A stretch of 64,000 bases of DNA from an uncultured Gemmatimonadaceae bacterium (GCA_963716745.1 OY970320.1:896001-960000); one strand, 5' to 3'; shown: positions 10,099-54,027, numbered from the stretch's first letter. Notes: generated by a model from the sequence alone, not told the origin. Translations and numbers: made by a program.

Positions 10099-11050
10099 AT
10101 GCCTGGAAACCGCGAAGACGCCGAGTCCATCAGCCGCCGCAACGCGATCCAGACCCTCATCGCGATCGGCGCGGGCTCATTGATCGCGCCCAAGTTCGCC
10201 GAGGCACAAGGGGCGGCCGCGCTCAACACACGCACGATCCCGCATTCGGGCGAGAAACTCCCCGTGGTCGGACTCGGCAGCTGGATCACGTTTAACGTCG
10301 GCAACGATCCGGACGCGCTCAAGAATTGCGCGCAGGTCGTGAGTCACTTCGCCGCGCGCGGCGGCCGGCTTATCGATTCATCGCCAATGTACGGCAGTTC
10401 ACAGGCGACGATCGGCTACGCGCTGCGCACGCTCAAGGACAAGAGCGCCATCTTCTCCGCCGACAAAGTTTGGACCTCGTCGGCGAGCGAGGCCGCGCCG
10501 CAGATCGCGGAGACGCGAGAAACGCTGGGGCGTCGCGAAGCTCGATCTGCTCGAGGTGCACAACCTGGAAGGCTGGGAACTTCATCTTCCAAAGCTCTTC
10601 GCGATGAAGGCCGCGGGTCAACTGCGATACGTGGGCGTCACCACGTCGCACAATCGCCGGCTCGACGAGACCGAGCAGATCATGCGCTCGCAGCCGATCG
10701 ACTTCGTGCAGTTCACGTACAACATCAGTGACCGCGAACCCGAGCAGCGCCTCCTGCCGCTCGCGCAGGAGCGCGGCATCGCGGTGATCACCAACCGTCC
10801 GTTCCAGGAAGGCGAACTCATCCAGCGCTTTCAGGGTCGCCCGCTGCCGCCGTGGGCCGCGGAGATCGGCGCGCCCACATGGCCGCGCTTCCTGCTCAGC
10901 TACATCGTGTCGCACCCGGCGGTCACGTGCGCGATCCCGGCGACGAGCCAGGTGGCGCACGTCGAAGAGAACATGAGCGCCGCGTACGGTACCCTTCCCG
11001 ACGCACCGACTCGCAAACGCATGGCGGCGTACGTCGACTCGCTCTCATGA
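10099..11050 (+). CDS. Aldo/keto reductase with Tat-like signal; frameshift near 10530
   Basis: SRRNAIQ leader, LPVVGLGSW, IDSSPMYG; continues as VHNL..W..HL and AIPATS in a second frame. Confidence 0.85.
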
Positions 11051-29764: not shown

Positions 29765-29806
29765 ATGCCCAAAGTATGAAGGGCGCGGCGGTCGCGCTAT
29801 ACGACA

Positions 29807-29940
29807 AACGGCCGGGAACCGGTTACCGGGAACCGGTGTGGCATGAACACACATGACATCAGGACTTCGCGCACTGTCGTGATGCCATGCGTTGTCATGC
29901 CACACCGGTTCCCGGTAATCGGTTCCCGGCCCTTGCCGTT
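29807..29940. repeat. Family A hairpin element, copy 12
   Basis: Full palindrome between divergent genes. Confidence 0.95.
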
Positions 29941-32604: not shown

Positions 32605-35087
32605 ATGGACGCTCTGCTGCAGGACCTGCGCTATGCGATGCGGACGCTGAGCAAGAGCCCCGCGTTCGTGACGATCACCGTGCTGACGCTCGCGCTCGGC
32701 ATCGGCGCGAACCTCGCGATCTTCACCGTCGTCAACGCCGTGCTGCTGCAGCCGCTGCCCTTCCGCGAACCCGAGCGCATCGTGCGCGTGTTCGATGATC
32801 TGGGCGGCGCGGGAGCCAAGAACGTCGGGATGTCGGTCCCCGAACTGTATGATCTGACCGAACGCTCCGGAGTATTCGAACAGATCAGCGCGACCTTTCC
32901 TTCGAGCGGGGCTCTGTCCGGCGGCGGAAGGGTGGAGCGGATCGTGTTGATCGGTACGAGCCCGAACTACTTCGAACTCCTCGGCGCGACGCCGGCACTC
33001 GGACGGGTCTACACCCAGTCCGAGTGGGTGCCGGGCTTCCTGGACGGCGTCGTCATCAGCGACGGCCTCTGGAAGCGCCAATTCGGATCGGATCCGCATA
33101 TCATCGGGCGGCGCGTTCGCATGGACGAGGACCCGTACACCGTCATCGGCGTCATGCCGCCCGACTTTCGCCACCCGGGCAATACGGATGCCGGCGACAT
33201 CGAGATGTGGACGGCAGCCGGCTTCACCGGCGATCCTTGGCCGTCGCCGCCGCGTGCGCGGCGCGCGGCGTTTGCCCGGAGCGTTGGGTCGCTTGAAACC
33301 GGGCATCACGCTCGAACAGGCACAGCGGCGACTCGATGCGTTCACGACTTCGCTGCAGCAGACCTACCCCAATGAATATCCCAAGCAGTTGGGTTGGTCG
33401 CTTCGGCTCGAGCCCGCCCAAAGCAGCCTCACCGGCAATGTGCGACCGACGCTGGTGATCCTGCTCGCCGCCGTGAGTTTCGTGCTCCTGATCGTGTGCG
33501 TCAACGTGGCCAGCTTGCTGATCGCGCGGGCGTCGGCGCAAATGCGTGAGTTCGCCATTCGCCAGGCGCTCGGCGCATCGCGCGGCCAGCTCGTTCGACA
33601 GGTGCTGACCGAGAGCGTGCTCATTTCGCTGGCCGGAGGCACGGCGGCCCTTGCGGTGCTTCTCGTCGCGCAACGATCGCTGCTTACGCTCGATGCCCGC
33701 GGATGTGCCTCGACTCGCCGAGGTGCATGCGGATTGGCGAATGGTGGCGTTCGCGCTGGTGCTGTCGCTCGCGACCGGAGTGTTGGTCGGACTGATGCCG
33801 GCGCTCCACGCATCGGCGATCGATCCCAATCGCGACTTGAGGGACGGCGGACGCACGGGTGGTGGACAGAGCCTGCGCCAGAACCGATCGCGCGCCACGC
33901 TGGTCGTGACGGAGGTCGCGCTATCGGCGGTGTTGCTCATTGGCGCCGGGTTGCTTGTCCGCAGTTTCTCGGCCGCGCTCGGTCAGGATCCCGGTCTCGA
34001 TCCGGAGAGGCTTGTGGCGGGCCAGATCTGGGTGCCCATTCCGAGCGATCCCAAGGCGAATCCATACTGACCGCCGCCGCAGCGCGCCGGGCTTGCCAGG
34101 GAACTGCTCGCACGGATCGCGCTGCTCCCCGGCATGGAGCGAACGGCGATCGGCACGTCGAGCGCTGTCCCGCTCCTGAGCAATCGTGAACAATCCCGTC
34201 GCGTTCTCCATTGCCCGACGAGGTCTCGACGCAGGAGAACGATCACGCCGCGGAGTTCGTCGCCGTGAGCGCAGGGTATTTCGACGTGCTCAGGACGCCG
34301 CTGAAAAAGGGCCGCGTCTTCACCGATCACGATGCGGACTCCAGCGCGAGAGTCGTGGTGGTCAATGAAGCGTTCGTCCGCAGATTCTCACCGCAACGGG
34401 ACGTGGTTGGCCGGCGGATGCGGTTTGTTTGGCGGGGTAGAGGAACAAGAAGCCGAAATCGTCGGCGTGGTCGGGGATGTGCGCAATGACGGACTGGACG
34501 TGGCGCCGCCGCCGCGCGTGTACCAATCCATTCTTCAATATCCCGGCATCAGGCTCGCCGTGTTTCTCCGCACGCGTTCCGATGTGGACGTGAAGGCGAC
34601 CAAGGAAGCCCTCACCGCGACGGTACACAGCATCAATCCGGAAATTCCGGTGTTCGACGTCAGGACCATGGCGGACCTGATGTCGGCTTCGATGGCGCGG
34701 CGCCAGTTCTCACTCTTCTTGATGTCGGTCTTTGCCGTGTCGGCGCTCCTGCTCGCCGCGCTGGGGATTTATGGTGTGATGGCCTTCGTCGTCGGCCAGC
34801 GCGCTCAGGAATTCGGCATCCGGCTGGCCCTGGGTGCGAAGCCGCGGGATATCCTCGGCCTCGCGTTCCGCCCCGGCCTCATTCTCACCGCCACGGGAAC
34901 CATCGTCGGTCTGGGTGCGTCGATCGTCGTGACGCGGCTGATGTCGAGCCTCCTGTTCGGCGTGTCGGCGAGCGACCCGATGACGTTCGCCGTTGTGCCG
35001 GTGCTGCTGGGGATCGTTACGATGGCCGCGTGTTTCATTCCGGCGAGACGCGCCACGCGCGTTTCTCCGATGGAGGTGCTGAAGTAG
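32605..35087 (+). CDS. ADOP-type duplicated ABC permease (MacB/FtsX domains); multiple frameshifts
   Basis: [15 protein letters not shown]...[50 protein letters not shown]. Confidence 0.9.
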
Positions 35088-36544: not shown

Positions 36545-37022
36545 TACTCCGTCATGCTGTTCTCGGCATACGGAGTGATCTCAGCGAACCCGACCGACTT
36601 GTAGAGCGCGTGAGCTGCGGACAGGAATTTCAGACTTTCCAATCGCACCGACTTCGTACCCGATCGCGCGCGCGTCTGACAGGAGCTGCTGCAGCAGGAG
36701 GCGGCCAGCGCCGGCTCCCCGAACGTGCGGCTGCACATACATCCTCTGGATCTCGGCGACCAGACGGCGTGATGCGCTTAAGACATCCGACTCCGACGTT
36801 CGCGCTATCGCGGCGGATCACGTAGAACCGGCCGCTCGGCGGATAGAACTTCGCCGGATCCTCGATATCCGATGTGACCATCGCATCGATATCGAAAGAC
36901 AGGCCGTAGTTCGCGGCAGCAGCGCTCGCGATCCATCGCAAATACTCGGCGATCAGGTGCCGCGCGGCTTCTCGCATTGCCGCGTCATCGACGGCAACCA
37001 GCTCGATCGCGGCAACGGTCAT
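36481..37022 (-). CDS. GNAT-family acetyltransferase; frameshifted
   Basis: VGVGCLK...EIQRMYV.P..RG; VRLES..FL.AAHALYKSVGF.EI.PY. Confidence 0.8.
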
Positions 37023-37023
37023 T

Positions 37024-37548
37024 CTATCGGGTCACGATGGGCAAGTACGCGCGCCACGGCCCGATCGCGTCCCGGTACTGTTTCGCCATCACACGGGCGG
37101 TTTGTGCGATATGTCCCAAGTCGTGCACGACCCAAGTCGCCAACAGCTGCCGGAGCGTGACCGTGCCGAACTCCGGATGCTCTCCATCCAGCGCGAGTTC
37201 TGTGTCCGTCAACCGCCAGGCCGCGAGCGTCGCGAGATTCTCCGCACGCAATCGCCCGAACTCATCGAGGAGGACGGACAGCGATTTGCCCTGACTCTCG
37301 CGGAGCTGTGCGAAACGATCGTACGGCGGAAGGCGGCGGCTCGTACTTTGAGAAAGGATGACCCGGGCGCGCGGGATCCAGTCCGTGCGCTCGCCGTGGA
37401 CGAGATGTCCGACGATGACGTACGGGCTCCACGTTTCGGGCCCTTCCGTCGCGTCGATCCACGCCGCACCCAAGTCGCGCAACATCGCATTCAGCGTCCC
37501 GGGCGTGCGTTCGAGGATCGCGATGCCCTGCGTGATGTCGAAGTCCAT
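37024..37548 (-). CDS. DinB-family protein
   Basis: LERTP..L, WSP...VGHL.HGE..DWIPR, TWVVHDLGH. Confidence 0.88.
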   Translation of the reverse strand: MDFDITQGIAILERTPGTLNAMLRDLGAAWIDATEGPETWSPYVIVGHLVHGERTDWIPRARVILSQSTSRRLPPYDRFAQLRESQGKSLSVLLDEFGRLRAENLATLAAWRLTDTELALDGEHPEFGTVTLRQLLATWVVHDLGHIAQTARVMAKQYRDAIGPWRAYLPIVTR

Positions 37549-37722
37549 TGCTCTCTTCCGTATGATGTTTGACCCCGCGCAAGGAACGCGCTTGCTCGAA
37601 GCCGTGTTCGCTGCGCGTTGCACGTCTCAGTGACGGTGCGAATGAACGTTTAAGCCAAGTGATCACGTGCGTCAACTGCAATCTTTTCACTATGATATTG
37701 CTCGACTGACGTTACCCCCGGC

Positions 37723-37980
37723 TTAGGCCAGAAACCTATCGGAGGATCGCGACAGCGGAGGGTTCCTTCGCCAGGGTGAGTTCCCGGCCGACCGCACGGC
37801 CAGCTCGTTCATGACGCGGCCGGAGCATTCGCGGATCTCGGCGCCACTCGCGCGGCCGTCCATCCAAGGAATGCGATGGCATTCACCGATTGTGCGGCGC
37901 ATTCTCTGGGGTCGCCCGCATCTCCCACGGTCCATCCGATTCTCGCGGGCAACGACGACGAAGTCGACGATTCGCGGCAA
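37723..37980 (-). pseudogene. Relic of the FAD oxidoreductase at 30991-32422
   Basis: 37803-37863 matches 32113-32173 with few mismatches (GRASGAEIRECSGRVMNE vs GRASGAEIREYFGRVMNE). Confidence 0.6.
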
Positions 37981-38237
37981 GTGTTGACGCTGATCCGCAT
38001 CCTCTTGCGACTACTGCCTAGAACAGCGACGTTCGAGCTGCTGCGGAACTATCGGAGAGCGCCGACATCAAGCCAGAGCATGGGCGCCATGACGGCGGGA
38101 AGGATGGTACTCTGCACCGGCGCTGTTGGAACGTGGCTGGCCCAACGTAGGGTTCGACTTGATATCGGGGAAGGGCCGACTCGACTCACACGTCGAGCAC
38201 CATTCGGTGACTCGGTGAGCCGCACGGCGAGGATATA

Positions 38238-38483
38238 ATGTCGATCACCAGGCACCGCTCTCAAGAGCAAGGAGACTCCCGTGGCGTGGATCGACCAAAT
38301 CTTCGATGCCAAGATTGTGAGAGAAAGAAGGCATTGTGCGGCGGAGCAAGAGGGACGTTCACCGGTTCTCATTGTTTGACGAGCTACTCCTTCAAGTGCA
38401 AGACCGAGGATATCATTCTCATTGAGACCGGACACCAATATGTCATTTTGTGCCACAAGGGGGCTCTTGTTATTCACTGCTAA
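38238..38483 (+). CDS. Small conserved hypothetical protein (~80 aa), frameshifted
   Basis: Joining frames gives WIDQIFDAKIVRE.GIVRRSKRDVHRF..FDELLLQVQDRGYH.IETGHQYVILCHKGALVIHC, a small-protein family I recall but cannot name reliably. Confidence 0.55.
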   Translation: MSITRHRSQEQGDSRGVDRPNLRCQDCERKKALCGGARGTFTGSHCLTSYSFKCKTEDIILIETGHQYVILCHKGALVIHC

Positions 38484-38684
38484 CCGTGGCCGGACTTGGA
38501 CAAGCGTTGGTTGCGCGGGTGGAATCGATCATTTGAATTACGCTACAGCGTATCGAGCTGTCACGCGTGGGATGGGACGAGGCGCGGCTCGGCGCAACAG
38601 TAGTCGATTGACGACAATCCCCGCGCAGCTTCTGGCGGGGCCACGCGCACTGGATCGCCACCACATAGCCCATCAGGTACTTCC

Positions 38685-39308
38685 ATTGACATTGCCGAAC
38701 TAGTCAGAGACTTTTCCGCCGCTCTGAAGGCTGTCGATTCGGAGAGGCCTGTGGGCGCGCGAATTCAATTCAAGCCGGGTGCCGGTCCCCTCACGGAAAC
38801 CGAACTGACGAGGTTGATTCTAAGCTACATGAAGTCTATGCAGGGCACGGTGTACTCGGACGCGGGTGAGCGCGCCTACCCGGGAAGTCGCCAGACTTGC
38901 GACATAGTCGTTCCGGGCAGGTGGGCAATAGAGGTCAAGCTAGCGCGCCCGTTTGGAGACAACGGCAAGCCGGCGGAGCGCTGGTCTGAGAACCTACTCT
39001 ACCCGTATGTGGGAAACACAAGCTCAATCGGCGACTGCCTGAAACTTGTCGAGTCACGCTTTCCTGAGCGAAAGGCCGTCCTCGTGATCGGGTACGAGCA
39101 TTCTCCACCACGGATTCCGCTGGAACCTGCCGTGCGAGGATTTGAGTTACTTGCTTCGGATATCGTTGGAATAGCAATCTCTGCTCGAAGCGAAGAGCTC
39201 GTTGTTGGCCTGGTTCACCCTTTCCATCAGCAAGCGCGGGTTTACGGATGGGAGGTCTTGGGCCGCACGATCGCGGCAGCTGACGCGTCCAGGGATTTTG
39301 ACGCTTAG
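38685..39308 (+). CDS. PD-(D/E)XK-superfamily nuclease-like protein (start uncertain: ATT 38685 or GTG 38751)
   Basis: E..YP....CDIVV...WAIEVK catalytic pattern. Confidence 0.7.
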   Translation: MDIAELVRDFSAALKAVDSERPVGARIQFKPGAGPLTETELTRLILSYMKSMQGTVYSDAGERAYPGSRQTCDIVVPGRWAIEVKLARPFGDNGKPAERWSENLLYPYVGNTSSIGDCLKLVESRFPERKAVLVIGYEHSPPRIPLEPAVRGFELLASDIVGIAISARSEELVVGLVHPFHQQARVYGWEVLGRTIAAADASRDFDA

Positions 39309-39513
39309 TGCCGCGCGCGGGCCTGCCAGGCGCCCGAGAATTTCGGTGGACCGACCTAAACCGCTGTCCTTCTGGCGCCCCGCACCGCGCGCTGCCGCGA
39401 TTTTAAGTGGGCCCCTGCCAGCCGCCGGCGCGCTCTCGCGTCCTCTCCGAGAGCTGAGGGGGCTGCAGGTCAGTCTGTCGCTTGATCTCCATCATGCCAT
39501 CCGCGAGGGATGA

Positions 39514-41061
39514 ATGCCTGACAAGGGTCACAAGCTCAACGAGAGGGTCTGGCGGCTCTTCTCCAAGGCGGGGTTCGACACCAAGCCGAACGCAACCGAC
39601 GCCTCCGAGGAGCAGGTAAGCCTGGGCACCGGCAATCCCCGCACGCTTGACTTGTCGGCAGCAGACTCGGCTCTCGGCGTCAAGATCATCGGCTGGAACA
39701 AGTCGAGAAAGCAATTCAGCGAGTCCATCAGCGTGCACATCCACGACGTGAGCGATCTTCTTATCCCGGCAGCTGCAGATGCTGGAGTGATGATCTCTCT
39801 AGAGAAGGAATTCACCGATAGCGACAAAGTTCTCGGTCGCGCGCGCAAGATAGCGATGTGGAACAAGGCGGACCTAGAGTACTTCGAAGCGCTAGTCGAG
39901 GCAGTTGGCGATCAAGCCAAGTTCGAAATCTTAAACGCGCTTAATGTCCGAACTAGAGAAGAGACGGGTGTGTTCAATGTTCTCGCGATAAAGTTCAATC
40001 AGCCAGCACCCGGATCCGCCGCTGAGTTGTTCATGTTCACAGCCCCTCCAAGAGTCCTTCTGAGAACGTGTGTCGTCTTGAGAAAGGCACAAGGCAGCAA
40101 GTATGCATATCAACGAATTCTTCAGGCGAAGCGACTCGGAAAGATAGCCGCCTTCGTTAGCAGGGCCGACGCGCTTCTTCCGCCGAATATTATCGTCCAC
40201 TTCGGCGACGAAGTTCGGTGGGAGCCGATTGCACATCCGAGTCAGGATCAGTCCGGTCGGAGAATCACTCTCGCCCGCGAACACGACTACGAACTCGGCC
40301 TTCTGGGCATCCCCTTGCGATACGCGTCGCTCGAACTGATCGATGGCCAGCACCGACTATTCGGATTTGCCCACGCCAACGCGGCGGCGCAGGACACGTT
40401 CAACTTAGCCGTACTTGGAATGCGTGCGATAAGGCCCGCTGGCCGAACCGAAACGTTTATCGCAATCAATGACAACGCGAAGCGAGTAGACGCAAATCTC
40501 GTCGCTTATTTGAAGTACGTTGCGGACGAGGCGACTTGTCAGGCGAACAACGAGCTCATGGCCATCAAAGTCGTCGTCGAATTGAATAAGACCAGTCCAT
40601 TCAAGGGAAGGATCAGAATACTGGATTTCGGCTCAGAGAGAATCACGCTCAAAGGATTCGCGGGTTATGACCTCAAGGGCCTTCTCGGCACGAGAGGACT
40701 TCTCCGCAAGTACTACAAGAATGACTCAGCGGAATTCGTTGGTGCACTCCGGATCTACTTTAGCGTCATGAAGACGATCTTCCCGAAGCAGTGGACCGAT
40801 CCAGATCGATACATTGTGTTTACCAAACGAGGAGTATCTGCATTTCTTAAGCTGCTGAGATCGATCCTGAAGAGCGAGAAGGCTCCACTAACGGCTGTCA
40901 TGGCCAATAAGTACCTGCAACCTCTACGCAATGACTGGGCGGACACCCGCTGGGAGACTGCGTCCCTCGCCAGCGGATATGTCGGATCGAAGGGGTGGAA
41001 GGATTTCCACCGAGACCTCGTCAAGATCATCCGCAGGAAGTACAAGAAATTCGAGGCCTAA
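39514..41061 (+). CDS. DGQHR-domain (DndB/ParB-like) protein with N-terminal restriction-endonuclease-like domain
   Basis: YQRIL...RL.KIA.F, PPNII, IDGQHRLFGF and F..IN..AKRV motifs; intact 515 aa ORF. Confidence 0.88.
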   Translation: MPDKGHKLNERVWRLFSKAGFDTKPNATDASEEQVSLGTGNPRTLDLSAADSALGVKIIGWNKSRKQFSESISVHIHDVSDLLIPAAADAGVMISLEKEFTDSDKVLGRARKIAMWNKADLEYFEALVEAVGDQAKFEILNALNVRTREETGVFNVLAIKFNQPAPGSAAELFMFTAPPRVLLRTCVVLRKAQGSKYAYQRILQAKRLGKIAAFVSRADALLPPNIIVHFGDEVRWEPIAHPSQDQSGRRITLAREHDYELGLLGIPLRYASLELIDGQHRLFGFAHANAAAQDTFNLAVLGMRAIRPAGRTETFIAINDNAKRVDANLVAYLKYVADEATCQANNELMAIKVVVELNKTSPFKGRIRILDFGSERITLKGFAGYDLKGLLGTRGLLRKYYKNDSAEFVGALRIYFSVMKTIFPKQWTDPDRYIVFTKRGVSAFLKLLRSILKSEKAPLTAVMANKYLQPLRNDWADTRWETASLASGYVGSKGWKDFHRDLVKIIRRKYKKFEA

Positions 41062-41234
41062 CAGGAGCGCGTTGCGCGCTACAAGGGGATCACGCGAAGA
41101 CGTGTGCCCCATTGCGTTCGAGAGGGCGGCGGTAGGTCAGCTGCTCTTCCACCCGATCTGGAGCAGCTCATACCGTAATGCCTCCAATCGCACTTCCGCC
41201 CTCTCGGTTTGCGCCTCTAGATACTCCGACCGAC

Positions 41235-43645
41235 TTAGCGGACACCATTTAGCTTGGGCACGCGAAATCCATCCACAAACTGGCGGAAGACATCTTCCTC
41301 GACGTCCGCCTTGAATCTCTCGATGTTCTGCCTAATACTGCCGACCGGATCATCCTTATCGACAAGAACCTCCGAGTCCTGATAAGCAACCGCCAACATG
41401 TGATAGAGACACTGATCGACCACGACCTCAGCAAGGCGATACTGTGAGGTCCGCTCCGCGTCAATCGAATCGCGAAACGATTTCTCGTCAGTGCCAAATG
41501 CTGCGCGATTGACTGCATGCAGGCTATTGATCGTGATCATGCCGGTGATCCGATCGAACTCGCTGGCATTCTTCGACAAGCCGCCCGGCAGCGCCCGATA
41601 TTGCAGTCCCTTGAAGACACCGCCAAATGGGCTCTTGGTCTCCTCGATCGAAACCAGCGCCTCTGCACGAACATTCACCTTTGGCTTCGGGAAGCAATCC
41701 GCGGTGATATGCGCCTTCTGGCCAAATCCATAGCCGCGATATGAGAGTCCAATGCGACCAACTGTCCCCGGTGGCAACAAATGGTCCTTTGTGAACTTGA
41801 CCTCTAGCTCGTCCTTCTCCACGCCCTTCGCATTGACGAGCTTCACTGTTGAATCACCCTGTGCCCTCCGCACCGAAATGAGAGTGCCAGTTGGCACAAT
41901 TAGCGGATTAACGAGTAGAGTCAGCCCCCCCAATCGATTCGGCGCTGCCTTACTCGCTTTCGGGTGAACTCAAGGCCCGAAGCGGGCGGTTCCGCAATTT
42001 CGGGTGGTATGACGTCGACCACATTCAGGCGCGCCTCTACATTGTTACCGTCAACGTCCTGGCCGAGTGCGAGAATCTCCGCCTGAGAACCAAGCTTGAA
42101 GCCGGCGATTGTGAAGCTGACCGTCAGCAGTCGCTCATTGGAGAGCACAGGCTCGAATACGGTTGAGCTTGGCTCGATACTAACATTGCCATTGTTGCTG
42201 TCCACGATAACCGTGTATTCTGGCTAGTACCCTAGCGCTGTTTGCGAGCAACCGAACGCGACGAGTTTGTCCGACCTTCAGTTGGATCCGTTCGTCCTCG
42301 AAAGCCATGACATTCGGAATGGCGGGACCTACAGAACCGGGGCCGCCTCCGGGCTGTTGTTTCGTGACGTCCTCGAACAGCTCATTCAGCTTCTGCAGCG
42401 CCTTCTTCACCTTCTTCTCTGCAGCATTGGAAAGGGCCTTCGTCGGCTCCGAGCGTCGGTCGATCTCCTTCTTCAGAATGGGTTCAAGCAGCGGCCTAAG
42501 GGTCGCGTCGAGCGCCTTGTAAAAATCGGTCCTAGTGTCGAACCCGTCGCGAGACTCGGTGAGAAGCGCCTCGCCTGCATTCAGGCGCTTCCTAATCACC
42601 TCGCGAACTCCCGTGAGTCGCACTACACCGTACACCTGGTCCAAGTAAGGTGAGCCCTCAAAGCCGAAAAGCGTCTGATCATATACGGTATCGACTTCAT
42701 CAACGACCAAGAGCCCACCCGCACGATCGTCACCAGCATCCGCACTGGGCAGAGTAGTGTCAGCGCGCACAACAATCACTTCCGCGAGAATCTCGCCATA
42801 CTCCTGATACTTCAGCTTGCAGTCGAACCTGCCGATCACCTGACCGCGTGGAAAATTGTATGTGAGATGGTGACGTTGGTCCCCTCCTCCGCGGCTCTGT
42901 TCGAGATTGACATCACAATGCGGATCGGCATTGATCAGGCGGAGCATGTAGAAGCCTGACAGGCGTGCAACAAGGCCTTCGGCATTCGGTACGCGACACT
43001 GCTCATTGAGCAGACACGAGACGTTCGTGCCGTTCTTCGAACCGATACCCCGAGTCCTGCCGCTGTTTTCGCGTTGCAGCGCCAATATCCATTACTTCAT
43101 AAACTGGTTCCTCCTGGCCAGGCCCACCCTCCCATTCAAAGGAGCATATGCTGGCGCGGTTCTCCTTTATGGTGCGCACTTGGCCCTGGTGTGTGTGAAT
43201 ACACGACATTGCCAATTCCTTGGCCAAAAAGACCCCGGGACAGCGTGTCCCTCGCCCGCACCACTCTTCTCCTCACCGTACTTCAATAATCTTCCGCATC
43301 CATCTCACCGGCAGTCATTCCTTCGGCGTGATCAATTACTTGGCACTCACGCTTTTCCAGTGAAGCCGCGGCAGCAGTAGTGCTAACTCGAATTGTGACT
43401 TCTCGGCGGGGTCTGCCCGGAAGCTCCTTGAGGAGGTCGTCGTGAATCACGTGAGTTCCAACCGGAAGGCCGAGTAGCTTCGCGATGATGCCCGTCGATG
43501 AATCCGCCGCGCCGTACATTCTCTTGTACGAGTCGTAGCTGTTGGTAACTGGTTCGGTAATCGTCTTCGCGATGCTCTGTTGGACAGCCTTGTTAAACTG
43601 TCGTTTCCACTTTCTTGTTGCGAGGGTCAACTTGCGCTTCGTCAT
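41235..43645 (-). CDS. Large (~800 aa) GHKL (Hsp90/MutL/MORC-like) ATPase; about five frameshifts
   Basis: ITEPVTNSYDSY (motif I), VIDHAEGMT (motif II), YGEEKSG...VRGLFGQG (motif III, after frame correction), NGTNV (motif IV); LLTESRDGFD in the S5-like region. Confidence 0.8.
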
Positions 43646-44357
43646 TCGTATCTCCTACGGTTCGGCGGTGGTAGTCGCGAGGTCAGCGCTTCCTGGAACA
43701 ACGTCGAGAATCGTTCGCGAAGTTCATTAAGAAGTTGACCACATCGTCGTCTCCGACTGAGGCGGCGGTCGTTCTTAGTCGCGCTAAGCGGTGCGTCAGC
43801 GCCTCGGGCGGCGTGTGCGAGTATGCCTCCAGGACATCAAGAGCCTCGAGTGCGTCCGCATTCTCCCAGCCAAGCTGGAATTTTTGCCAAAGCGCTGAGG
43901 TGCGTATTCGCGCAACTCCATCTTCAGCATGCACCGTTCGTTTTACCTTGCCGCCTGGTTCCGCCTGGAGGTCAGATGGCGAGAGCTTAAGATTCACGCT
44001 CGCGTTCGTCCCGAGCTTCCCCATCAACGCGCGCGCCTCTTCTTCTCCTCCGACCGTTAGCTGCCATCCCAGTCGAGTCTTACCGGTGGCCCAATTCCGA
44101 TACTTGGGGCGGAGCTGCAGGAGTGCTCTGTTGACCCGCGTCGCATCTGGGTACTCCGCGAAGCCAACCATTGCAAACCTTCTCGGAAACATTCGAAACA
44201 ATGCCACCGCAATGTTCTCGAACGTTGCCGGTACATCAAGATCAGAGAGCACTTTGATGGCGAACACGGTCAAGCGATTCAGATCGATGGCCGAGTACCG
44301 ATCTGCCTCATAGGGCTTCAGGCCCATGATCGCCGTGGGAGTTGAAGCTTTACTCAC
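43642..44357 (-). CDS. Hypothetical protein, probable winged-helix; frameshift near the C-terminus
   Basis: TFENIAVALFRMFPRRFAMVGFAEYPDATRVNRALLQLRPKYRNW..G....GWQLT..G; GTG start overlaps the corrected MTase stop and the corrected stop overlaps the ATPase ATG. Confidence 0.7.
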
Positions 44358-45259
44358 TTGAGCGTGGGTTCTGGAATTGTGAGCTCCTTGGTCCAAGGAT
44401 TCCTTGTCAATGAGCTGTCGGCGGGTGGCACGTAGATCGGGCGTCCATACGCCCGAAGAGGAAGTTTGCCCGCCGCGGCCTGCCGAGCTCGCGTACGACA
44501 ATCCGGACATACGATGCATGTATGTCAGATCCTATCGCGCGCCGACCTCGCAAAACGGCGGCGGCGATCGTCGTGCCTGAACCCATGTATGGATCACACA
44601 CCGCGTCGCCGCGATCCGTAAGGGCGAGGATCAGGCGATCGGCCAGCTCAAGCGGAAACTGACAAGGGTGATCAGTTTTTTCGGGATGATTGTGCTTGAC
44701 GTTGGGGATTGCCCAAACATTGCCGGGATTCTGACCATTGGGGTTTGATGAGAACTGACCCTTCTTTGGCCCCTTGTAGTGCCTCTTGCCTGGGTATTTT
44801 TGCGGAACACGCACATGCTCGAGATTGAACTTGTAGCGTTTGCTCTTTGTGAACCATGAGATAGTCTCGTACCTTCCCGAGAATCGCTGGTTGCAATGCA
44901 ATCCATGCTCGAAATGCCACACGATTCTATTGCGCATTTCTGAATCCGGAGTCGATGAACTCCCTATAAAGCAGTGAATCAAGAGGGTACACCTGACCCG
45001 AGCGCACATAGTTTCCAACCTGCCAGCATATGCTACCGTTGGGCTTCAGGACGCGCGCGCACTCAGAAATCACAAGCCGCTGGTTCGCCAAGTATGAATT
45101 GATGTCTGTCCTCTCCTCGTAACTCTTGCCGAGGTTGTACGGCGGCGATGTCAGCACCAGCATTACTGATTCGTCGGGTAGTGATCGCAGGAACGCCAGA
45201 CAGTCGCCTGTATGCAGCACGACGTCTGCGTCGCTGCGGTGAGACTTGCTAATCTTCAT
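44354..45259 (-). CDS. Site-specific DNA methyltransferase, beta class (N4-C/N6-A); two frameshifts
   Basis: Motif IV TSPPY near the N-terminus, HPCQFP, motif I DPYMGSGTT near the C-terminus. Confidence 0.92.
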
Positions 45260-46345
45260 TCTCCTCCCCCGGAGCTATTGTGGATCGGGTGCCTATGCGT
45301 TGCATGTGCGCCTGCGTTCCTGAGTTGGTCCAACGCGGACTCGCCACCGCGTGCGATCGCGAACCGAGCGGACCTACCGGTCTTGATGCGGGTAATTAGT
45401 CGCAAGTCTTGCATGCGTCCCAACGCACCAGCTTTCATGGTCTGTACCGTCGCTTCTGACAGGCGGGAAGGAAGGTTTTGTTTTGCGAGTTGATCCAACT
45501 CTTCAACAGACAGTTCACTCTCGAGGAGGCCAGTAAGAATTGCCATCAGGCAAGAACGTTCACGGGGAATTCTCTCCGCGGCGTTATCGAGATACCATCC
45601 GGATCTCGTCGGCCGAGAGCGCCGTACTTAGGTCACCAGCGTCGAGGGCAGGATTAGGCAGCTTGGCAAACGTGAGTCCGCCGGCGGTCAGCCCCACGCG
45701 ATTCTTTTCAGCGACGCCCGCGAGGCCAAGTTCAAACAGAGCTCCGCTCGCTCGCCCCTTCCTGTCGACTCTGCCGAAATAGTGGTCCCCAAATCGTTCT
45801 CTGGCTCTAAAGAGCGGCTCGCGGCTCGGCAGGCCTGTGAGAAGGCTTTCGTCGCCTGGCGGCCTGGCCACTCCGTATCGCGTAGCGATCCACCTGCCCG
45901 CCGCTTCCGCGCGCACGCTCGCGAGATTCTTGGCGGCTTCGAGGTCAGTTGGCCCCATCGCCGACTCTCTGAGTAGTGAGCGCAACGCGATCTTGATCGG
46001 GAACACGCGATTTACAATTCCCCAAAGCCAACCGTGATCAGCCACTCTCATGCTGGCGGCAGCCGATAAGTCCAGCGTTGCTACTGGCTCCCCGTGGAGC
46101 ACGCCAAGATCAGAGAATGAGGTATTCTCGGAAGGCTGATGTGCGAAGACTGATCGGCTCCGCATTGATTCACGATCGCCTGCGGCGAGCGAAGGCCCCT
46201 CCTCGCGCCCAGTCGGCGCCTCCAGCGAGAGCTGATTCTCAATTGCGAGAGTAGCGAACTGGCCCACAGAGGCAAAGCCGCCGGCTTCCACTGCCCGCTG
46301 TACCCTATCGAATAACCCCGACGGGACGTCAATTAGAATTCTCAT
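45256..46345 (-). CDS. Hypothetical protein with N-terminal RHH-like and C-terminal wHTH-like segments; frameshift near 45590
   Basis: MRILIDVP..LFDRVQRAVEAGGFASVGQFATLAIENQL; WGIVNRVFPIK; GALGRMQDLRLI.R; stop overlaps the MTase ATG. Confidence 0.65.
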
Positions 46346-46378
46346 GGCAACGGATCCTCTATGACTGCGACCGGATGC

Positions 46379-46434
46379 ATCATATAATACAGCTGATGTC
46401 TTGTCAATAGCAACCGATGTATCAAATCGATACA
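46379..46434 (-). promoter_or_regulatory. Sigma70 promoter of the island operon with an upstream inverted repeat
   Basis: Minus strand TTGACA (46407-46402), 17 bp spacer, TATGAT (46384-46379); palindrome TGTATC-N5-GATACA at 46418-46434. Confidence 0.75.
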
Positions 46435-46574
46435 ACCGTTCCTCGTTCCCCATCGACAGACTCGGCGGCCGTCCAAAGATCCGGTTTGCCATCGGGGGAG
46501 GCTTCTCAGGATGGAGAGTTCTTCCCTCGGAACCTGGCAGCATCAGAGGTACCGCCCACCGACGCGACGGTAAG

Positions 46575-46610
46575 AAAAAAAAGCCCCACCGCGATATCGC
46601 GGCGAGGCTT
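46575..46610 (-). terminator. Rho-independent terminator downstream of tRNA-Pro
   Basis: Minus strand AAGCCTCGCCGCGATATCGCGGTGGGGCTT followed by a T-run. Confidence 0.8.
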
Positions 46611-46624
46611 CATCTTCAATTCAA

Positions 46625-46698
46625 TCGGGACGGCGGGATTTGAACCCGCGACCCCCTGAACCCCATTCAGGTGCGCTACCGGGCTGCGCTACGTCCCG
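46625..46698 (-). tRNA. tRNA-Pro (anticodon GGG); CCA not encoded
   Basis: CGGGACG-TA-GCGC..GCGC-A-CCTGA-ATGGGGT-TCAGG-GGGTC-GCGGG-TTCAAAT-CCCGC-CGTCCCG-A cloverleaf. Confidence 0.97.
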
Positions 46699-46792
46699 CT
46701 CCTCTGCCTCGGAGCAAGGACCGGAATCTACTCGCGCGACGATGCCCCGACAACCGCCGCCGCACTCCGCGCCCGCGCGACGCCCCCGGCGC

Positions 46793-47446
46793 TCACTCCC
46801 TGCCCCGGCGCACGCCGACGAACGGCAGCAGCGCCCGCACCTGCTCGCGATACTCCGCGTACGGCCGGCCGAGCGCGGCAACGAGCATCTCGTCTTCCAC
46901 TCTCACGCGGTACGCGTACGCCGCGAGGGTCGCGACGAGACTCGCGGCGAGGGTCACGGCGTTCCCGCTCGCCATCGCGACGCCGTTCAGACAGAGCAGT
47001 GATCCGAGATAACCGGGATGCCGCACCCACCGGTACGGACCGTCGCGCGACACTCTGTGCTCGGCGTTCACGAGCAGCGTCCGCGTGTAGCGCTCGCGCA
47101 GAGTGAGCACGGCCCACAGCCGCAGCGCGAAACCCGCGACGCCGAGTGCCACGCCCGTCCACGCGGCCGCGGGCATGCCGGGGATCGCGGCGTCGCGGAA
47201 CCAATGCGGCAGCCACCCCGCGTAGCCGGGCGAGTTGGCCTTCATCGCGAGGACGAATCCGAACACCGGCACGAGCGACGCGGCGGACAGGATCCACGTG
47301 CTCTTCCGGTCGTACTCGCCGCCGCGATGAGCCCGCGCGCGCGCGCCGAAGCGGAGCTCGGCCTGCAGCATGTACAACAGGAGCACGACGATGGCGGACT
47401 GGCCGTACGCGGGGAGTTCGGCGAAGCGGTTGATCCAGTCGGACAT
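46793..47446 (-). CDS. Isoprenylcysteine carboxyl methyltransferase-family membrane protein
   Basis: GPYRWVRHPGYLG and RVRVEDEML...G..YAEY motifs. Confidence 0.88.
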   Translation of the reverse strand: MSDWINRFAELPAYGQSAIVVLLLYMLQAELRFGARARAHRGGEYDRKSTWILSAASLVPVFGFVLAMKANSPGYAGWLPHWFRDAAIPGMPAAAWTGVALGVAGFALRLWAVLTLRERYTRTLLVNAEHRVSRDGPYRWVRHPGYLGSLLCLNGVAMASGNAVTLAASLVATLAAYAYRVRVEDEMLVAALGRPYAEYREQVRALLPFVGVRRGRE

Positions 47447-47458
47447 CAGCTGTCGCCG

Positions 47459-47870
47459 CTACGGCAGCGCGGTGCCGCTGAGCGTCACGTGCACGTGCGC
47501 GCTGCCCGGTTGGGCCACGACGTCGAGGGTCGCATTCTTCGTGCCGATGCTGCTCACGGGAGTGAACTCGACCCTGATGGTGCACGTGGCGCTGGCGACG
47601 ACGGCGCCCGCGGCGGCGCAACCGTCGGCGATGATCGTGAAGTCACCGGCGTTCGGTCCGCTCAATCCGTTGGCGAACGATGTCGTCGCTGCGTTGCCCG
47701 CGTTGGTGATCGTGAAGTCCTTGAACGCCGAGGAATCGCCGAGGTTCACGTTCCCGTAGCCCCACGTCAGGGGGTTCGCGAGGAGGATGATGCGAGGACG
47801 GAGTCGTTGGGGTGCTGCTGCAGGCTCCGACGAGAGCGGCGAGCGCGAGAAGGATCGGCGTGCGCTTCAT
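47459..47870 (-). CDS. Small lipoprotein with Ig-like (choice-of-anchor D/ASH) domain; frameshift near 47790
   Basis: Lipobox VGAC; FTITNAG...DFTI..DGC.....ATCTIRVEFTP...G.KNATL. Confidence 0.7.
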
Positions 47871-47923
47871 CCAGGGGCTCCCGCGGAATCTACGCGCGCA
47901 GCGGGGGCGACAACGGCTACTGC

Positions 47924-48050
47924 AACTACCGGGAACCGATTGCCGGGAACCGGTGAGGAATAACAAAGAATGCATTACGACATCGCGCGATGTCGTAACA
48001 CCATGCTTTGTCATGCAACACCGGTTCCCGGCAATCGGTTCCCGGCAGTT
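47924..48050. repeat. Family A hairpin element, copy 14
   Basis: Full palindrome. Confidence 0.95.
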
Positions 48051-48076
48051 ACAGGCCACTCAGATCGGCGGAGTGG

Positions 48077-49424
48077 TCACGACCTGCGCGAGAAGCCGCT
48101 CAGCAGACCGCCGCCGTCGGAACCGATCGTGTACGCACGGTGGTCACGTGGAGATTCGCCGCCGCGGTCGCATTGCCGAGCGCGCCAAAGAACACGGTGG
48201 TGGTGCCGAAATCGGGTGAGGTCGCTTGGGCATCCCCCTGGCAACAGGAAGGCCTTCACGAGGCCATCCACGCAGAGAAGATACAAATTGACCGACCCTT
48301 CCTTCCTGACCCGGTACTTGTGAGAGGACAGTCGCAGTCACGTTGAAGGAGGCTCCGGGGGTAGCGACGTCGCTCCACAAGCCGGTGACCGGATCCAGGT
48401 GCACGAACGCGACGTGGTCCTCATAGAACCCCAGGACCGCTTGCGTCCCCGTCGCGCCAGGCTGGACGATACCGATCACGGCCTGTATGGGAACGCCAGC
48501 GATGGCGCTTCCAAGCTTTCCTTCCAGGAAAATGGAGGCGAGGCTCGGCGCATCCAGAGAATCGTTGCGCGCGATGTAGATGGAGCTGGTGCCGGTCGCG
48601 GCCGTGAGCACCAGGTCGGTGCCAATGTTGAACGTCTCGCTGCCCAGCGTTGTGTACTGATTGACCTGCGTGTACGGCGTCTTCCATCGCGGCTTCGCGA
48701 ACTGGTCGGGCAGCGAATCGGTCTTCCCGCTATATGAGTAGGCCCACAACGTGTCATTCGGCGGCGGCCACGCGGCGTTCACCATGAGCACGAAGGTGAA
48801 TGAATGCACGGTATCGCCGGTGGACGGCTTGAATGAGCCGGTGAACTTCCACTGCTGATCGGATGTGAGATCGGTTCCGGGCGAACCCTGCACTGCCGTG
48901 GGGCGGTCCTTGTACCAGAAGAACGGCTGGTTCAGGGCCGTGAAGAAGCCCAAGCCAGCGTAGTTCGCAACCGTGATGGTGCAGGCGACGCACGGCGTAC
49001 TCTGCGTGATCACCGGCGAGCTCGAGAAGCCGATGAACACGCCGCTCGTGTCAGGCGGCGCCGGATTGGTCGCCGAGTAGTTCGACCCGATCGGGAAGCT
49101 CAGCAGATTCTCCATGTGGACGTTGAACGTCCACGTCCGATTCACGGGCGCATTGTCGACGAGACTCACGAAAGTCCCGGTGATCGCCACGGTGGTAGAG
49201 CCGCCGTAAATGGCTGGACTGACAGCGCTGTTCTTCCCGACCGCGGCCTGCGCGCCCATTGGCACGAACTCGGCCGTCATCGTCTTTCCAGTCACCGTGC
49301 CGCGGATCATGCCGAGAGGCGCAGGACGCCCGCGCGGAGCGAGGGGTGCATTGCCCGTCGGGCCGTCGCTGCAGGCAGCGACGGCGAGGAGAATGAACGC
49401 GGCTTGGAAGAGGCGGTTAGTCAT
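48077..49424 (-). CDS. Putative lipoprotein of unknown function; C-terminus frameshifted
   Basis: Lipobox VAAC-SDGPT; long beta-rich Ser/Thr/Pro-rich ORF. Confidence 0.6.
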
Positions 49425-49548
49425 GGGGGAAATGTACACCATTTGGGCGCAAGAGGTGCCTACTAATTCTGACCAGTAAGACCCGAAGTTGCAACAAATT
49501 GTGGCGGAAGGGGAGGGCTAAGGGGCTCGGGGAATGTTCGGGGCCTCT

Positions 49549-49682
49549 AACAGCCGGGAACCGGTTGCCGGGAACCGGTGAGGAATGACAATGCATGGTG
49601 CTACGGCACCGCGCAATGAAGTGATGTAATGCGTTGTCATGCCACACCGGTTCCCGGCAATCGGTTCCCGGTAGTTGCAGTT
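49549..49682. repeat. Family A hairpin element, copy 15
   Basis: Full palindrome between divergent genes. Confidence 0.95.
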
Positions 49683-49754
49683 AACCTCTGGCACCCCGCC
49701 CAAGCTCGGGCCATGTTCGGCGCTCGCGCACGTCTCCTCTGCCCCGGGCCCGAC

Positions 49755-51344
49755 ATGAATCGCACTGCTCGTTGCCTCCTATTCTGCCGCTGCCATCATT
49801 CCGGCCGCCCGAGGCGCCGCCCAGCAGCTGCCCGGCTGCGCAATTCACCGATCCCGATCGAGCCGCGAAGCTCGCCGCGGCGTATCCGGCTATCGATTCG
49901 CTATTCGCGGCCATGGCGCTTCGCGAGCATATCCCCGGCGCGGCGTGGGGCATCGTGATCGACGGGAGACTCGGCCACATCGGCGCGGCCGGTGTTCGCG
50001 ATATCGCGACGAAGTCCCCAGTGGACACGAATTCCGTGTTCCGCATCGCGAGCATGACCAAGAGCTTCACGGCGGCGAGCATCCTACTATTGCGTGATGA
50101 GGGCAAGCTTTCGCTCGATGATCCTGCGGAAAAGTGGGTCCCGGAGCTGAAGGGACTTCGCGCCACAAAGGACTCGCCGACGCTCACGATCCGCATGCTC
50201 CTGTCGCACGACACCGGTTGGCCCGAGGACAATCCGTGGGGCGATCAGCAGCTCTCGATCGCCGACAGCACGCTGAGTCGCATGATCGCGCACGGCATTC
50301 CCTTCTCGCACGCGCCCAACACGGCGTACGAATATTCGAACTACGCATTCATGATCCTTGGCCGCATCGTGTCGCGCGCGAGCGGAATGCCGTACCGGCA
50401 ATTCGTGCAAACGCGCCTGCTCACGCCGCTGGGCATGAAGTCGAGCACGCTCGAAGTCGCCATGGTGCCGAAAGACAAGCTCACGCTCGGATACCGCTGG
50501 GAAGACGGCACCTGGAAGCTCGAGCCGCAGCTGCCCGACGGCGCCGGCGGACCGATGGGCGGCATGCTCGTGAGTCCGCACGACATGGGCGTGTGGATCG
50601 CGAACATGCTCTCGGCGTGGCCGCCGAGCGATGCGCCGGAGACGGGACCGGTGAGGCGGAGTTCGCTGCGCGAGATGCAGCAGATGCACCGCACGCGGCC
50701 GCCGCAGGTCACGTACGACACGCTCACGAAGCACGTGACGCTCTTCGCGCCCGGTTATGGATTTGGTCTGCGCATCGTTGCCAATTGCAATTTTTCGCAC
50801 ATCGTGGCGCACGCGGGCGGACTGCCGGGATTCGGATCGTCTGATGATCTGGCTGCCGGAATACGGAGTGGGGCTGTTCGCGTTCGGGAATCGCACATAC
50901 ACGGATTACAGCGCGGCGAGCGATTCGGTGTTCGCGCTGCTGAAGAGGACGGGCGGGCTCGAGCGGAGAACGCCGGTGCCGGCGCCGGCGCTCGTGAAGG
51001 CGCGCGACCAGGTGAGCCGCCTCGTGATCAAGTGGAGCGACGCGCTCGCGGATTCACTCGCGTCAATGAATCTCTACCTCGACCACTCGAAGTCCCATCG
51101 CATCGCGCAACTCGACTCGCTGCACGCGAAAGTCGGCGCGTGCACGGCCGCAACGAATTGGTTCGTGGTGGAGAATGCGCTGCGCGGACAGTGGATCATG
51201 CCGTGCGAACGAGGAGCCATATGGGTGAGCATCACGATGGCGCCGACAATGCCGCCGTCGGTGCAATTCCTCGATGTGGCGGAGGAATCGACGGCGATGG
51301 CGAATGCGGTGAGGCACCCGGAGGAACGGAACTGCAGGAACTGA
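49755..51344 (+). CDS. Serine hydrolase, beta-lactamase (class C-like) family; frameshifts near 49790 and 50840
   Basis: FRIASMTK (SxxK), YEYSN, HAGGLPGF motifs. Confidence 0.88.
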
Positions 51345-52612: not shown

Positions 52613-53731
52613 ATGTCTCGCGTAAGGGTCCTCGCCGGCACGAAGAAAGGCGCATTCATTCTCACCGCCGACGGCAAACGGAAGAAATGGGAAGTGTCCG
52701 GTCCGCATTTCGCGGGCTGGGAGATCTACCACATGAAGGGATCGCCGGCCGATCCCGATCGCATTTACGCGTCGCAGACGAGCGGTTGGTTCGGGCAGGT
52801 GATGCAGCGCTCGAGCGACGGCGGGAAAACGTGGGAAGCGGTGGGCAACAAGTTCGCGTACACCGGCACGCCGGGCACGCATCAATGGTACGACGGCACG
52901 CCGCACCCGTGGGAATTCAAGCGCGTGTGGCACATCGAGCCGAGTCTCAAGGATCCGAACACCGTGTACGCCGGCATCGAGGACGCCGCGATCTTCAAGA
53001 GCACCGACGGCGGCACGAACTGGAAGGAGCTGCCGGGCCTGCGCGGGCACGGCACGGGCCCGGACTGGACGCCGGGCGCGGGCGGCATGTGTCTCCATAC
53101 CATTCTGCTCGATCCCAAGGATCCCAAGCGCATCTTCGTCGCGATCAGCGCGGCCGGCGCGTTCCGCACCGATGATGGCGGCGAAACGTGGAAGCCCATC
53201 AACCAGGGGCTGCGCTCGAATCACATTCCCGATCCCAAGGCCGAAGTGGGCCACTGCGTGCACCGCATCGCGATGCACAAGTCGAAACCGAAAACGCTGT
53301 TCATGCAGAAGCACTGGGACGTGATGCGCAGTCGGACGACGCGGGCGACAGCTGGCGCGAAGTGAGCGGCAATCTCCCCACCGATTTCGGTTTCGTGATC
53401 GACGTGCACGCGCACAAGCCCGAGACCATTTACGTGGTGCCGATCAAGAGCGACTCCGAGCATTTCCCCATCGGCGGCAAGCTGCAGGTGTTCCGCAGCA
53501 CCACGGGCGGCAACGAGTGGGAGCCGCTCAAGAAGGGACTGCCGCAGAAGAACTGTTATGTGAACGTGCTGCGCGACGCGATGGCGATCGACACGCTCGA
53601 CAAGTGCGGCGTGTACTTCGGCACCACCGGCGGGCAGATCTACTGCAGCGCCGACAGCGGCGACAGCTGGGGCGCGATCGCGCGCGATCTGCCGGCGGTG
53701 CTGCAGCGTGGAGGTACAGACGCTGCAATGA
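52613..53731 (+). CDS. BNR/Asp-box beta-propeller protein (sialidase-like/WD40-YVTN); two frameshifts
   Basis: Repeated S.DGG.TW Asp-boxes; GTKKGAF N-terminus. Confidence 0.88.
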
Positions 53732-54027
53732 CGGTGCGCGTGGTGCTGCCGCATCACCTGCGGATCCTCGCGCAGGTGGGAGACGAAGTCACGGTGAACG
53801 TGAACGGCGGCGGGACTCAGCGCGACGTGCTCGACGCGCTGGAATCTCAGTATCCCGTGTTGCAGGGGACGATGCGGGATCATGACACGCTTAAGAGGCG
53901 GGCGTTCATCAGGTTCTTTGCGTGCGAACGAGACCTCACATTCGAGCCGGCCGATGCGCCGCTGCCGGAGGCGGTGCGGAAAGGGGACGAGCCTTTCTTG
54001 GTGATCGGAGCGATCGCGGGAGGCTGA
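53728..54027 (+). CDS. MoaD/ThiS-family ubiquitin-like protein
   Basis: VRVVLP.HLR.LA...C-terminal AIAGG; ATGA overlap with the upstream gene. Confidence 0.88.

Follow-up and report, generated by a model that had tools for sequence, protein, structure and literature searches.

Introduction

MutL/MORC-like GHKL ATPases were predicted in restriction-modification (R-M) operons by Iyer, Abhiman and Aravind (2008, PMC2292703). Here we analyze a four-gene operon with such an ATPase on the minus strand of a 64,000-nt stretch of DNA from an uncultured Gemmatimonadaceae bacterium (GCA_963716745.1 OY970320.1:896001-960000). That whole stretch is referred to as the window, and all coordinates are positions in it. 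Like the MORC and paraMORC proteins described in the passages of PMC2292703 on which we draw, the ATPase has an N-terminal GHKL plus S5-like module and is encoded in an operon with a DNA methylase, and the two groups also share a patchy, laterally mobile spread and a predicted role in ATP-driven DNA handling in R-M-like systems. The operons described there center on superfamily II (SF-II) helicases and recognizable nucleases (restriction endonuclease (RE) fold, HNH, Vsr, and TIR), mostly with cytosine-5 methylases. Compared with that published description, the constant partners of the ATPase here are a winged-helix protein and a beta-class methylase with an SPPY motif, the ATPase itself has beta-sandwich domains and an unclassified C-terminal domain, and the core has no recognized helicase or nuclease.

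A second relative is the pair of HEF_HK (PF19191) and Response_reg_2 (PF19192) proteins encoded near Type II R-M systems (Bellieny-Rabelo et al. 2021, PMC8011034). As far as the consulted part of that paper describes it, this pair also consists of a GHKL protein of the HATPase_c_3 type and a small partner, is enriched beside Type II methylases and has been proposed to be related to paraMORC; however, its partner is receiver-like and its methylase is of the C-5 class, whereas here the partner is a winged helix and the methylase an N6_N4 enzyme with SPPY. There was no match to PF19191 or PF19192 in 21 homologs of the ATPase or in 14 homologs of the partner, which is the product of the third gene of the operon (g3).

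GHKL ATPases are also found in anti-phage defense, as in Tiamat (bioRxiv 10.64898/2026.09.30.754977), some genes of which neighbor methyltransferases, and GHKL-Shedu/paraMORC3 (PMC12137116). Both are described in the portions of these sources used here as single-gene systems with a PD-(D/E)xK nuclease (DUF4263 in GHKL-Shedu), while the unit analyzed here is multi-gene. Identity with Tiamat, which has a DUF3684 core, was rejected because neither that domain nor a nuclease was found in the module, and identity with paraMORC3/GHKL-Shedu because DUF4263 had no match on the 21 full-length ATPase homologs (Pfam and PADLOC) or on 15 isolated C-terminal domains (Pfam).

An earlier note on this DNA, made from the sequence alone, had recognized no named system in it, and our searches agree. 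In PADLOC-DB v2.0.0 there were no matches for six short-form ATPase homologs (<880 aa), five homologs of the first gene (g1), nine g3 homologs and the fragments in the window, and in NCBIfam release 20 (2026) the ATPase, g1 and g3 are all without a family. In Pfam neither g1, g3 nor the ATPase fragments of the window had a match, and the ATPase homologs gave a weak match to HATPase_c_3 only. A search of a limited literature collection returned only the general class, GHKL ATPases in R-M operons, and no description of this module. These results support the view that the four-gene combination matches no named defense system in PADLOC-DB, Pfam or NCBIfam; the module is a new set of partners within the "GHKL ATPase in R-M-like operon" kind.

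Organization of the Four-Gene Operon

The operon is read from the minus strand in the order g1, SPPY methylase, g3, GHKL ATPase, and has the following features:

46407->46379, minus strand: sigma-70-like promoter TTGACA-17-TATGAT, upstream of g1
45256..46345, minus strand: g1, ~350 aa, one gene whose two pieces in the window are joined by homologs
44354..45259, minus strand: beta-class N6_N4 DNA methyltransferase with SPPY motif, ~300 aa
43642..44357, minus strand: g3, ~225-238 aa, winged helix plus C-terminal helical domain
41235..43645, minus strand: GHKL ATPase, ~800 aa, with GHKL+S5, beta-sandwich domains and a C-terminal domain of no known family

As assembled, the operon is broken into about a dozen open reading frames (ORFs). 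Intact public homologs map onto these pieces end to end without gaps, which bears out the four-gene unit proposed in the earlier note. The 4-bp stop/start overlaps that it had placed at all three junctions are likewise present, as ATGA between g1 and the methylase (45256-45259, visible already in the uncorrected ORFs) and, once frameshifts are read through, as GTGA between the methylase and g3 (44354-44357) and ATGA between g3 and the ATPase (43642-43645). The near-consensus promoter was also found; it matches at 11 of 12 positions and is the top of six promoter-like sites in the region 38000-47000, where shuffled sequences average 3.3.

Conservation of the Module

The minus-strand unit is a real, conserved and widely scattered module. 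Using an alignment of 21 ATPase homologs we found 90 loci, in 14 species-representative genomes and 76 metagenome contigs, and searched all of their stop-to-stop ORFs with profiles built in this analysis. The loci come from at least eight phyla. Those in genomes belong to Gemmatimonadota (Gemmatimonadaceae), Armatimonadota, Acidobacteriota (Terriglobales), Nitrospirota, Syntrophobacteraceae, Saccharibacteria, Thermoleophilia and one Thermoplasmata archaeon. No relative was found in viral contigs, a result with no bearing on defense either way, and blastn found no match to the ATPase gene in a plasmid collection.

The conservation of the neighborhood across genomes, which the earlier note had suggested checking, is high. 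Where there are 700 nt or more of room, the g3 gene lies directly upstream of the ATPase gene in 78 of 79 loci, and the sole miss (L094) is a fragmentary match. Of the 49 loci with a complete short-form ATPase, 45 also have a homologous methylase, as do 28 of the 29 that have room on both sides; three of the four short forms lacking it (L014, L020, L052, and L068) are on cut contigs, and L014 carries a sigma-region-4-like helix-turn-helix (HTH). The SPPY motif was found in 53 of 57 methylase ORFs, the remaining four being truncated or weak matches. The placement of the methylase varies: upstream on the same strand (28 cases), downstream and convergent (21), upstream on the opposite strand (5) or downstream on the same strand (3). 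The g1 gene is less frequent (11/90 loci), and L061 and L062 have the same order as the window, g1-methylase-g3-ATPase. Pairwise distances for g3 and the ATPase are strongly correlated (r = 0.96; 39 distinct loci, from 45), and those for the ATPase and the methylase less so (r = 0.49; 0/999 permutations as high). These correlations speak for co-inheritance of a module only.

Some loci have additional genes or irregularities. In the Thermoplasmata archaeon a DpnI-like methyl-directed enzyme (L015:101-1027; PF06044, E 5.4e-52) is encoded divergently beside g1-g3-ATPase, on a contig that stops before any methylase could appear. DUF2130 proteins are encoded between g1 and g3 in two loci (L077:3966-5297 and L078:711-1925) and close by in a third (L011:4913-6229); it is possible that they are accessory effectors of some variants. 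In L088 (4002-6359) the ATPase matches are in two pieces ~1.1 kb apart (4002-4844 and 5940-6359), possibly because the gene is interrupted by an insertion or an assembly break.

The MORC-Like GHKL ATPase

The ~800-aa GHKL ATPase of the earlier note is confirmed both by homology and by fold. Residues 1-801 of the 819-aa homolog P0001 cover positions 43645-41238 at 58-80% identity per frame segment, and the GHKL motifs are readable in the window's own ATPase frames. Across the 21 ATPase homologs E31, N35, D105, G109, G140 and G142 are invariant; we take these to represent motif I (E...N), motif II (D.G.G-like) and the glycine-rich motif III. The weak match to PF13589 (HATPase_c_3) was found in 15 of the 21 full-length homologs at E <= 0.01, the best being 4.7e-06, while a profile of the ATPase had no match among Protein Data Bank (PDB) sequences at E <= 1.

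In the AlphaFold model of P0001 (predicted local distance difference test score, pLDDT, 80.4) residues 7-400 form a GHKL+S5 module. Its best match is MORC3 (5ix2_B; Z 18.8, root-mean-square deviation [rmsd] 4.0, 301 aligned), followed by SMCHD1 (6mw7_C; Z 18.6), with Hsp90 and TopoVI-B statistically tied (Z 16-17.7). As modeled, therefore, the N-terminal half of the ATPase is a MORC/SMCHD1/Hsp90-like GHKL+S5 module. In the model it is followed by two long helices, by beta-sandwich domains at ~445-665, for which Foldseek gave matches to transglutaminase and intimin Ig-like domains, and by a C-terminal domain comprising a conserved beta-beta-alpha element plus helices. Residues 660-819 retrieved only unnamed clusters from the ESM Atlas (0.90-0.92). 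An HNH reading of the beta-beta-alpha element (model residues 693-715) was dropped, since by eye its first strand has no conserved histidine.

The Methylase, g3, and g1

The beta-class SPPY methyltransferase named in the earlier note is well supported: PF01555 matched in two ORFs (E 2.9e-39 and 7e-12), the PADLOC model MTase_II matched at 9e-52, and SPPY is present. These matches identify it as a DNA methyltransferase of the kind, with catalytic and S-adenosylmethionine (SAM)-binding motifs, that belongs to a Type II R-M system. An SPP(Y/F) motif is typical of N4-cytosine methylases and DPPY of N6-adenine methylases, and by this rule the window's enzyme is presumably of the N4-cytosine type.

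The third gene had been described as wHTH-like (winged helix-turn-helix), and its AlphaFold model (pLDDT 84.4) agrees with this, residues 17-125 resembling the winged helices of 2qvo (Z 9.6, rmsd 2.4, 83 aligned) and 1tbx (Z 9.4). Among g3 homologs there is no conserved acidic or histidine cluster pointing to catalysis. A complex prediction for the L004 ATPase (residues 1-764) with its g3 scored 0.00 against a mark of 0.32, which we count neither for nor against binding.

Homologs of g1 with 335-383 aa (L003, L004, L005, L007, and L015) span both pieces of the gene in the window. By eye its N-terminus is ribbon-helix-helix (RHH)-like and the rest winged-helix-like. A g1 profile had no match among PDB sequences at E <= 1. 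The nearest named clusters in the ESM Atlas are the winged-helix recognition domains of FokI, AlwI and BpuJI (0.75-0.79), a likeness that we treat as a lead only.

A Long-Form Sister ATPase

In 19 loci the ATPase is longer, at 931-1044 aa. Examples are:

L010:10001-12802, long-form ATPase
L030:5977-8823, long-form ATPase
L072:4419-7262, long-form ATPase
16 other loci, long-form ATPase

The long form keeps its g3 partner. A methylase is near only one of the 19 (a weak match, L038) and near none of the six with room on both sides, and all nine long forms scanned have C-terminal Sigma70_r4 and Bac_DnaA_C domains, with the DnaA equivalog region matched in NCBIfam. The loss of the methylase thus coincides with the fusion of DNA-recognition domains to the ATPase. 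This swap is the strongest hint that the methylase of the short form supplies target discrimination, and it makes the sister form, in which the methylase is replaced by HTH domains, a natural comparison. The HATPase_c_3 scores of the long forms (19.8-23.6 bits) are below the 25-bit cut-off. PADLOC matches to MzaA on the long forms were traced to the sigma-70 region 4 HTH, and identity with the Mza system was rejected.

Proposed Function of the Module

On balance, we lean toward reading the unit as a single R-M-type module, conserved and horizontally mobile, whose effector is the MORC-like GHKL ATPase rather than a recognizable nuclease. In such a system the SPPY methyltransferase would mark the host's own DNA, and g3 would be the obligate partner of the ~800-aa ATPase and presumably bind it. 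With MORC, SMCHD1, MutL and TopoVI-B as analogs, we propose that the ATPase dimerizes on ATP and clamps or remodels DNA. Together with g3 it would act on DNA without the mark. It might do so through an unrecognized catalytic site in the conserved C-terminal domain, or it might leave the DNA uncut and use ATP to clamp or silence it. As the first gene after a strong promoter, g1 may regulate the operon, serve as a sequence-recognition subunit, or do both. A DGQHR-domain protein encoded on the plus strand would be an occasional accessory, and a small endonuclease-like gene next to it a separate neighbor (both are described below). The gene content, the conserved neighborhood, the folds and the intact ATPase motifs of the family are what the analysis shows; methylation as a gate between self and non-self, a complex of g3 with the ATPase, the target and any defense phenotype are our inference.

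Known defense genes adjoin several of the 14 genome loci: CBASS (cyclic oligonucleotide-based anti-phage signaling system) in L010, SoFic and PDC-S05 in L012, a DpnI-like enzyme in L015, PDC-S41 in L003, and a DpdB-like protein in L004. This fits a defense role and does not prove one. Several points weigh against an R-M-type module with the ATPase as effector. About half of the 14 genome loci are without defense neighbors; related loci are not independent, and shared ancestry inflates the counts and correlations given above. The methylase-free long forms indicate that g3 and the ATPase can do without methylation. Family searches with Pfam and PADLOC found no nuclease in g1, g3 or the ATPase, and Pfam returned chance-level rows only for 15 isolated ATPase C-terminal domains at E <= 5. 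Finally, the operon in the window has about ten frame disruptions, while both plus-strand genes beside it are intact.

Some of these observations would also be expected if the module served not immunity but a chromatin-like function or the control of replication, in mobile elements or in their host, with the MORC-like ATPase and a winged-helix loader compacting DNA, silencing it or blocking its replication at particular sites, and the methylase acting as an epigenetic regulator. The presence of Sigma70_r4 and of Bac_DnaA_C, which binds DnaA boxes, in every long form scanned is in keeping with this, as are the nearest folds, the silencing ATPases MORC3 and SMCHD1, the lack of a nuclease among the families found, and neighbors such as DnaB_C (L010), a primase/AAA_25 protein (L016), a serine recombinase (L013) and PolA (L014). 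We nevertheless consider such a role unlikely, because a close association with a Type II-like SPPY methylase, a gene order that varies between loci and a patchy distribution over phyla are typical of R-M-like selfish or defense modules, several loci adjoin defense genes, and not one of the 90 could be placed on a plasmid or phage, nor was any found in viral contigs.

A bolder form of the R-M-type proposal, for which we would claim little confidence, is a prokaryotic immune or silencing system that is free of nucleases. The methylase would mark self, and the MORC-like ATPase, loaded by the winged-helix protein, would topologically clamp and shut unmarked incoming DNA; in the methylase-free sister form the fused DnaA-box-binding domain would aim the machine at the replication origins of invaders. 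If true, bacteria and archaea would have in this module a counterpart of eukaryotic MORC/SMCHD1 silencing.

To our knowledge very few GHKL/MORC ATPases of R-M systems have been tested since their prediction in 2008. Those of known activity, Tiamat and GHKL-Shedu, bring their own nuclease according to the descriptions considered here, whereas this module has no recognizable one. It is a compact unit of three or four genes with intact copies in many lineages, a tightly co-inherited adaptor and a dedicated methylase. Its study opens the questions of how a MORC-type ATPase reads a DNA mark and stops foreign DNA, and whether eukaryotic MORC silencing descended from such a system. Its three unannotated protein families are potential models for defense-system finders.

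Frame Disruptions in the Window's Copy of the Operon

From a frameshift-aware alignment and three-frame translations we placed about ten single-base frameshifts in the 5.1 kb of the operon. There is one in g1 (~45603), two in the methylase (~44937 and ~44500), one in g3 (~43725), and six or seven in the ATPase (~43296/43289, 43237, 43185, 43052, 42220, and 41966). Three more shifts that the alignment proposed in g1 were discounted, because the linker in which they fall is not conserved and can be read through in one frame.

With so many shifts, the window's copy of the operon may be non-functional here. It could be a decaying pseudogene cluster without present function in this genome, whatever its relatives do, and we regard this as a serious possibility, though not the one we would choose. 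The density of shifts is the main reason to entertain it: the two plus-strand genes of the same island have no shifts over their 2.2 kb, and about four split genes among 59 flank ORFs (~55 kb) make the flanks far sparser in disruptions than the operon. However, the genome is a single 3.29-Mb contig with a completeness of 89.8% (same-genus genomes in few contigs have 63-83%), and one contig combined with low completeness is the pattern expected of an indel-rich long-read assembly. Moreover, genes are split in the flanks too (DUF748, MacB/FtsX, aldo-keto reductase, and BNR protein), and each frame segment of the ATPase retains its 58-80% identity to P0001. There are also no stop codons within the correct-frame segments, and real decay with ten indels should have added nonsense mutations.

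The split flank genes encode a DUF748/AsmA-like protein (27137-29905), MacB_PCD and FtsX (32605-35087), an aldo-keto reductase (10099-11050) and a BNR/sortilin-like protein (52613-54027). Their occurrence suggests indel errors or pseudogenes beyond the island as well.

Plus-Strand Genes Convergent with the Operon

Two intact genes face the operon:

39514..41061, plus strand: DGQHR-domain protein, 515 aa with a ~150-aa N-terminal extension, frame intact
38685..39308, plus strand: small endonuclease-like protein, 185-207 aa, with a D...E-[VI]-K signature

The DGQHR protein of the earlier note was readily recovered, its score against TIGR03187 (120.1 bits) being well above the curated cut-off of 58.85. 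The Dnd and Dpd DNA-modification systems have DGQHR proteins of their own, DndB and DpdB, with which the window's protein shares this domain. It differs from them in its additional N-terminal domain and in scores far below the equivalog cut-offs (63.8 vs 300 for DpdB and 68.6 vs 450 for DGQHR_dnd_1), and no dnd or dpd families were detected among the scanned ORFs of the island and its flanks. A DGQHR protein adjoins the module in three of the 90 other loci. The architecture with N-terminal extension is shared by those in L048 and L078, while that in L004 is shorter and DndB-like. In L078 the genes lie on one strand in the order g1, DUF2130, g3, ATPase, DGQHR, methylase. The association with the module is unlikely to be due to chance, because at E <= 1e-10 the DGQHR query matched only two other genomes among 400 of the phylum, although clustering in defense islands could contribute. 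We treat the DGQHR protein as an occasional accessory of the module, one that recurs but is rare.

The second gene had been called a PD-(D/E)XK protein. All four aligned homologs do keep a D-x(8-11)-E-[VI]-K signature, whereas no family in Pfam, PADLOC or NCBIfam matched; the label is based only on this signature. There is no ATG, GTG or TTG start near 38685; homologs still cover 92-98% of the 207-aa reading. The protein belongs to a large and strongly conserved family of 465 homologous clusters, of which the 120 listed are 45-77% identical to it and none of those is named; one member is at L100:7053-7673. BLASTP detected no similarity between the small protein and the product of the gene upstream of L004's DGQHR gene (E 0.91). 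In genome G250 a 54%-identical homolog is followed by a 5-methylcytosine (m5C) methylase (PF00145) and an MTaX1 protein.

The small gene was found in none of the 90 other ATPase loci and is probably outside the module; it would most simply be a separate Type II-like endonuclease gene. The suggestion in the earlier note that there might be two adjacent systems thus holds for this gene, with its m5C neighbor in G250. The DGQHR gene recurs in the three loci and lies within the operon in L078. A more thorough dismemberment would leave three unrelated neighbors in a defense island: a Type II R-M pair made up of the small endonuclease-like gene and the SPPY methylase, a g3/GHKL pair, and a lone DGQHR gene. 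The family of the small protein does pair with a methylase in G250, the gene is intact and only ~5 kb from the methylase of the window, and DGQHR proteins are rare beside the ATPase. We consider this improbable all the same, because it is with g3 and the GHKL ATPase that the homologous methylase travels in 45 of the 49 short-form loci, none of the 90 loci has the endonuclease-like gene, and in the window the methylase is translationally coupled to both g1 and g3 by the 4-bp overlaps.

Genomic Setting

The operon and the plus-strand genes are located in an island with these further features:

37574..46576, no strand: island of ~9 kb, not in the same-genus genome G002
46625..46698, minus strand: tRNA-Pro(GGG), found with ARAGORN, bordering the island
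46611-46580, after tRNA-Pro(GGG): terminator-like hairpin, found by terminator scan
37723..38477, minus strand: two small ORFs of 85 and 142 aa at the left island end, of no family

The ~9 kb are an insertion in the window genome, since in G002 the matches to window positions 37005-37573 and 46577-50500 are only 255 bp apart. The GC content of the island (~37.6-46.6 kb) is 55-58%, vs 63-65% in the flanks. Among 40 relatives none has the island, save for a 355-bp piece of the methylase (70% identity) in G021. One end is directly downstream of tRNA-Pro(GGG) and its terminator-like hairpin. There was no integrase among the scanned ORFs of the island and its flanks, and no att-like direct repeat of at least 14 nt brackets the island. 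The 85-aa and 142-aa ORFs had no match in Pfam or NCBIfam, and the GC content at third codon positions (GC3) of the latter is 0.54.

Outside the island a near-perfect palindromic element of ~135 nt occurs twice, at 47915-48060 and 49544-49682. As single-stranded DNA it has a folding energy of -59.3 kcal/mol (z -13.8). Of the 93 matches listed in this genome, most are due to the element, and there are many more in the same-genus genomes G002, G004 and G005, in both orientations; it looks like a repeat family of the REP (repetitive extragenic palindromic)/MITE (miniature inverted-repeat transposable element) type.

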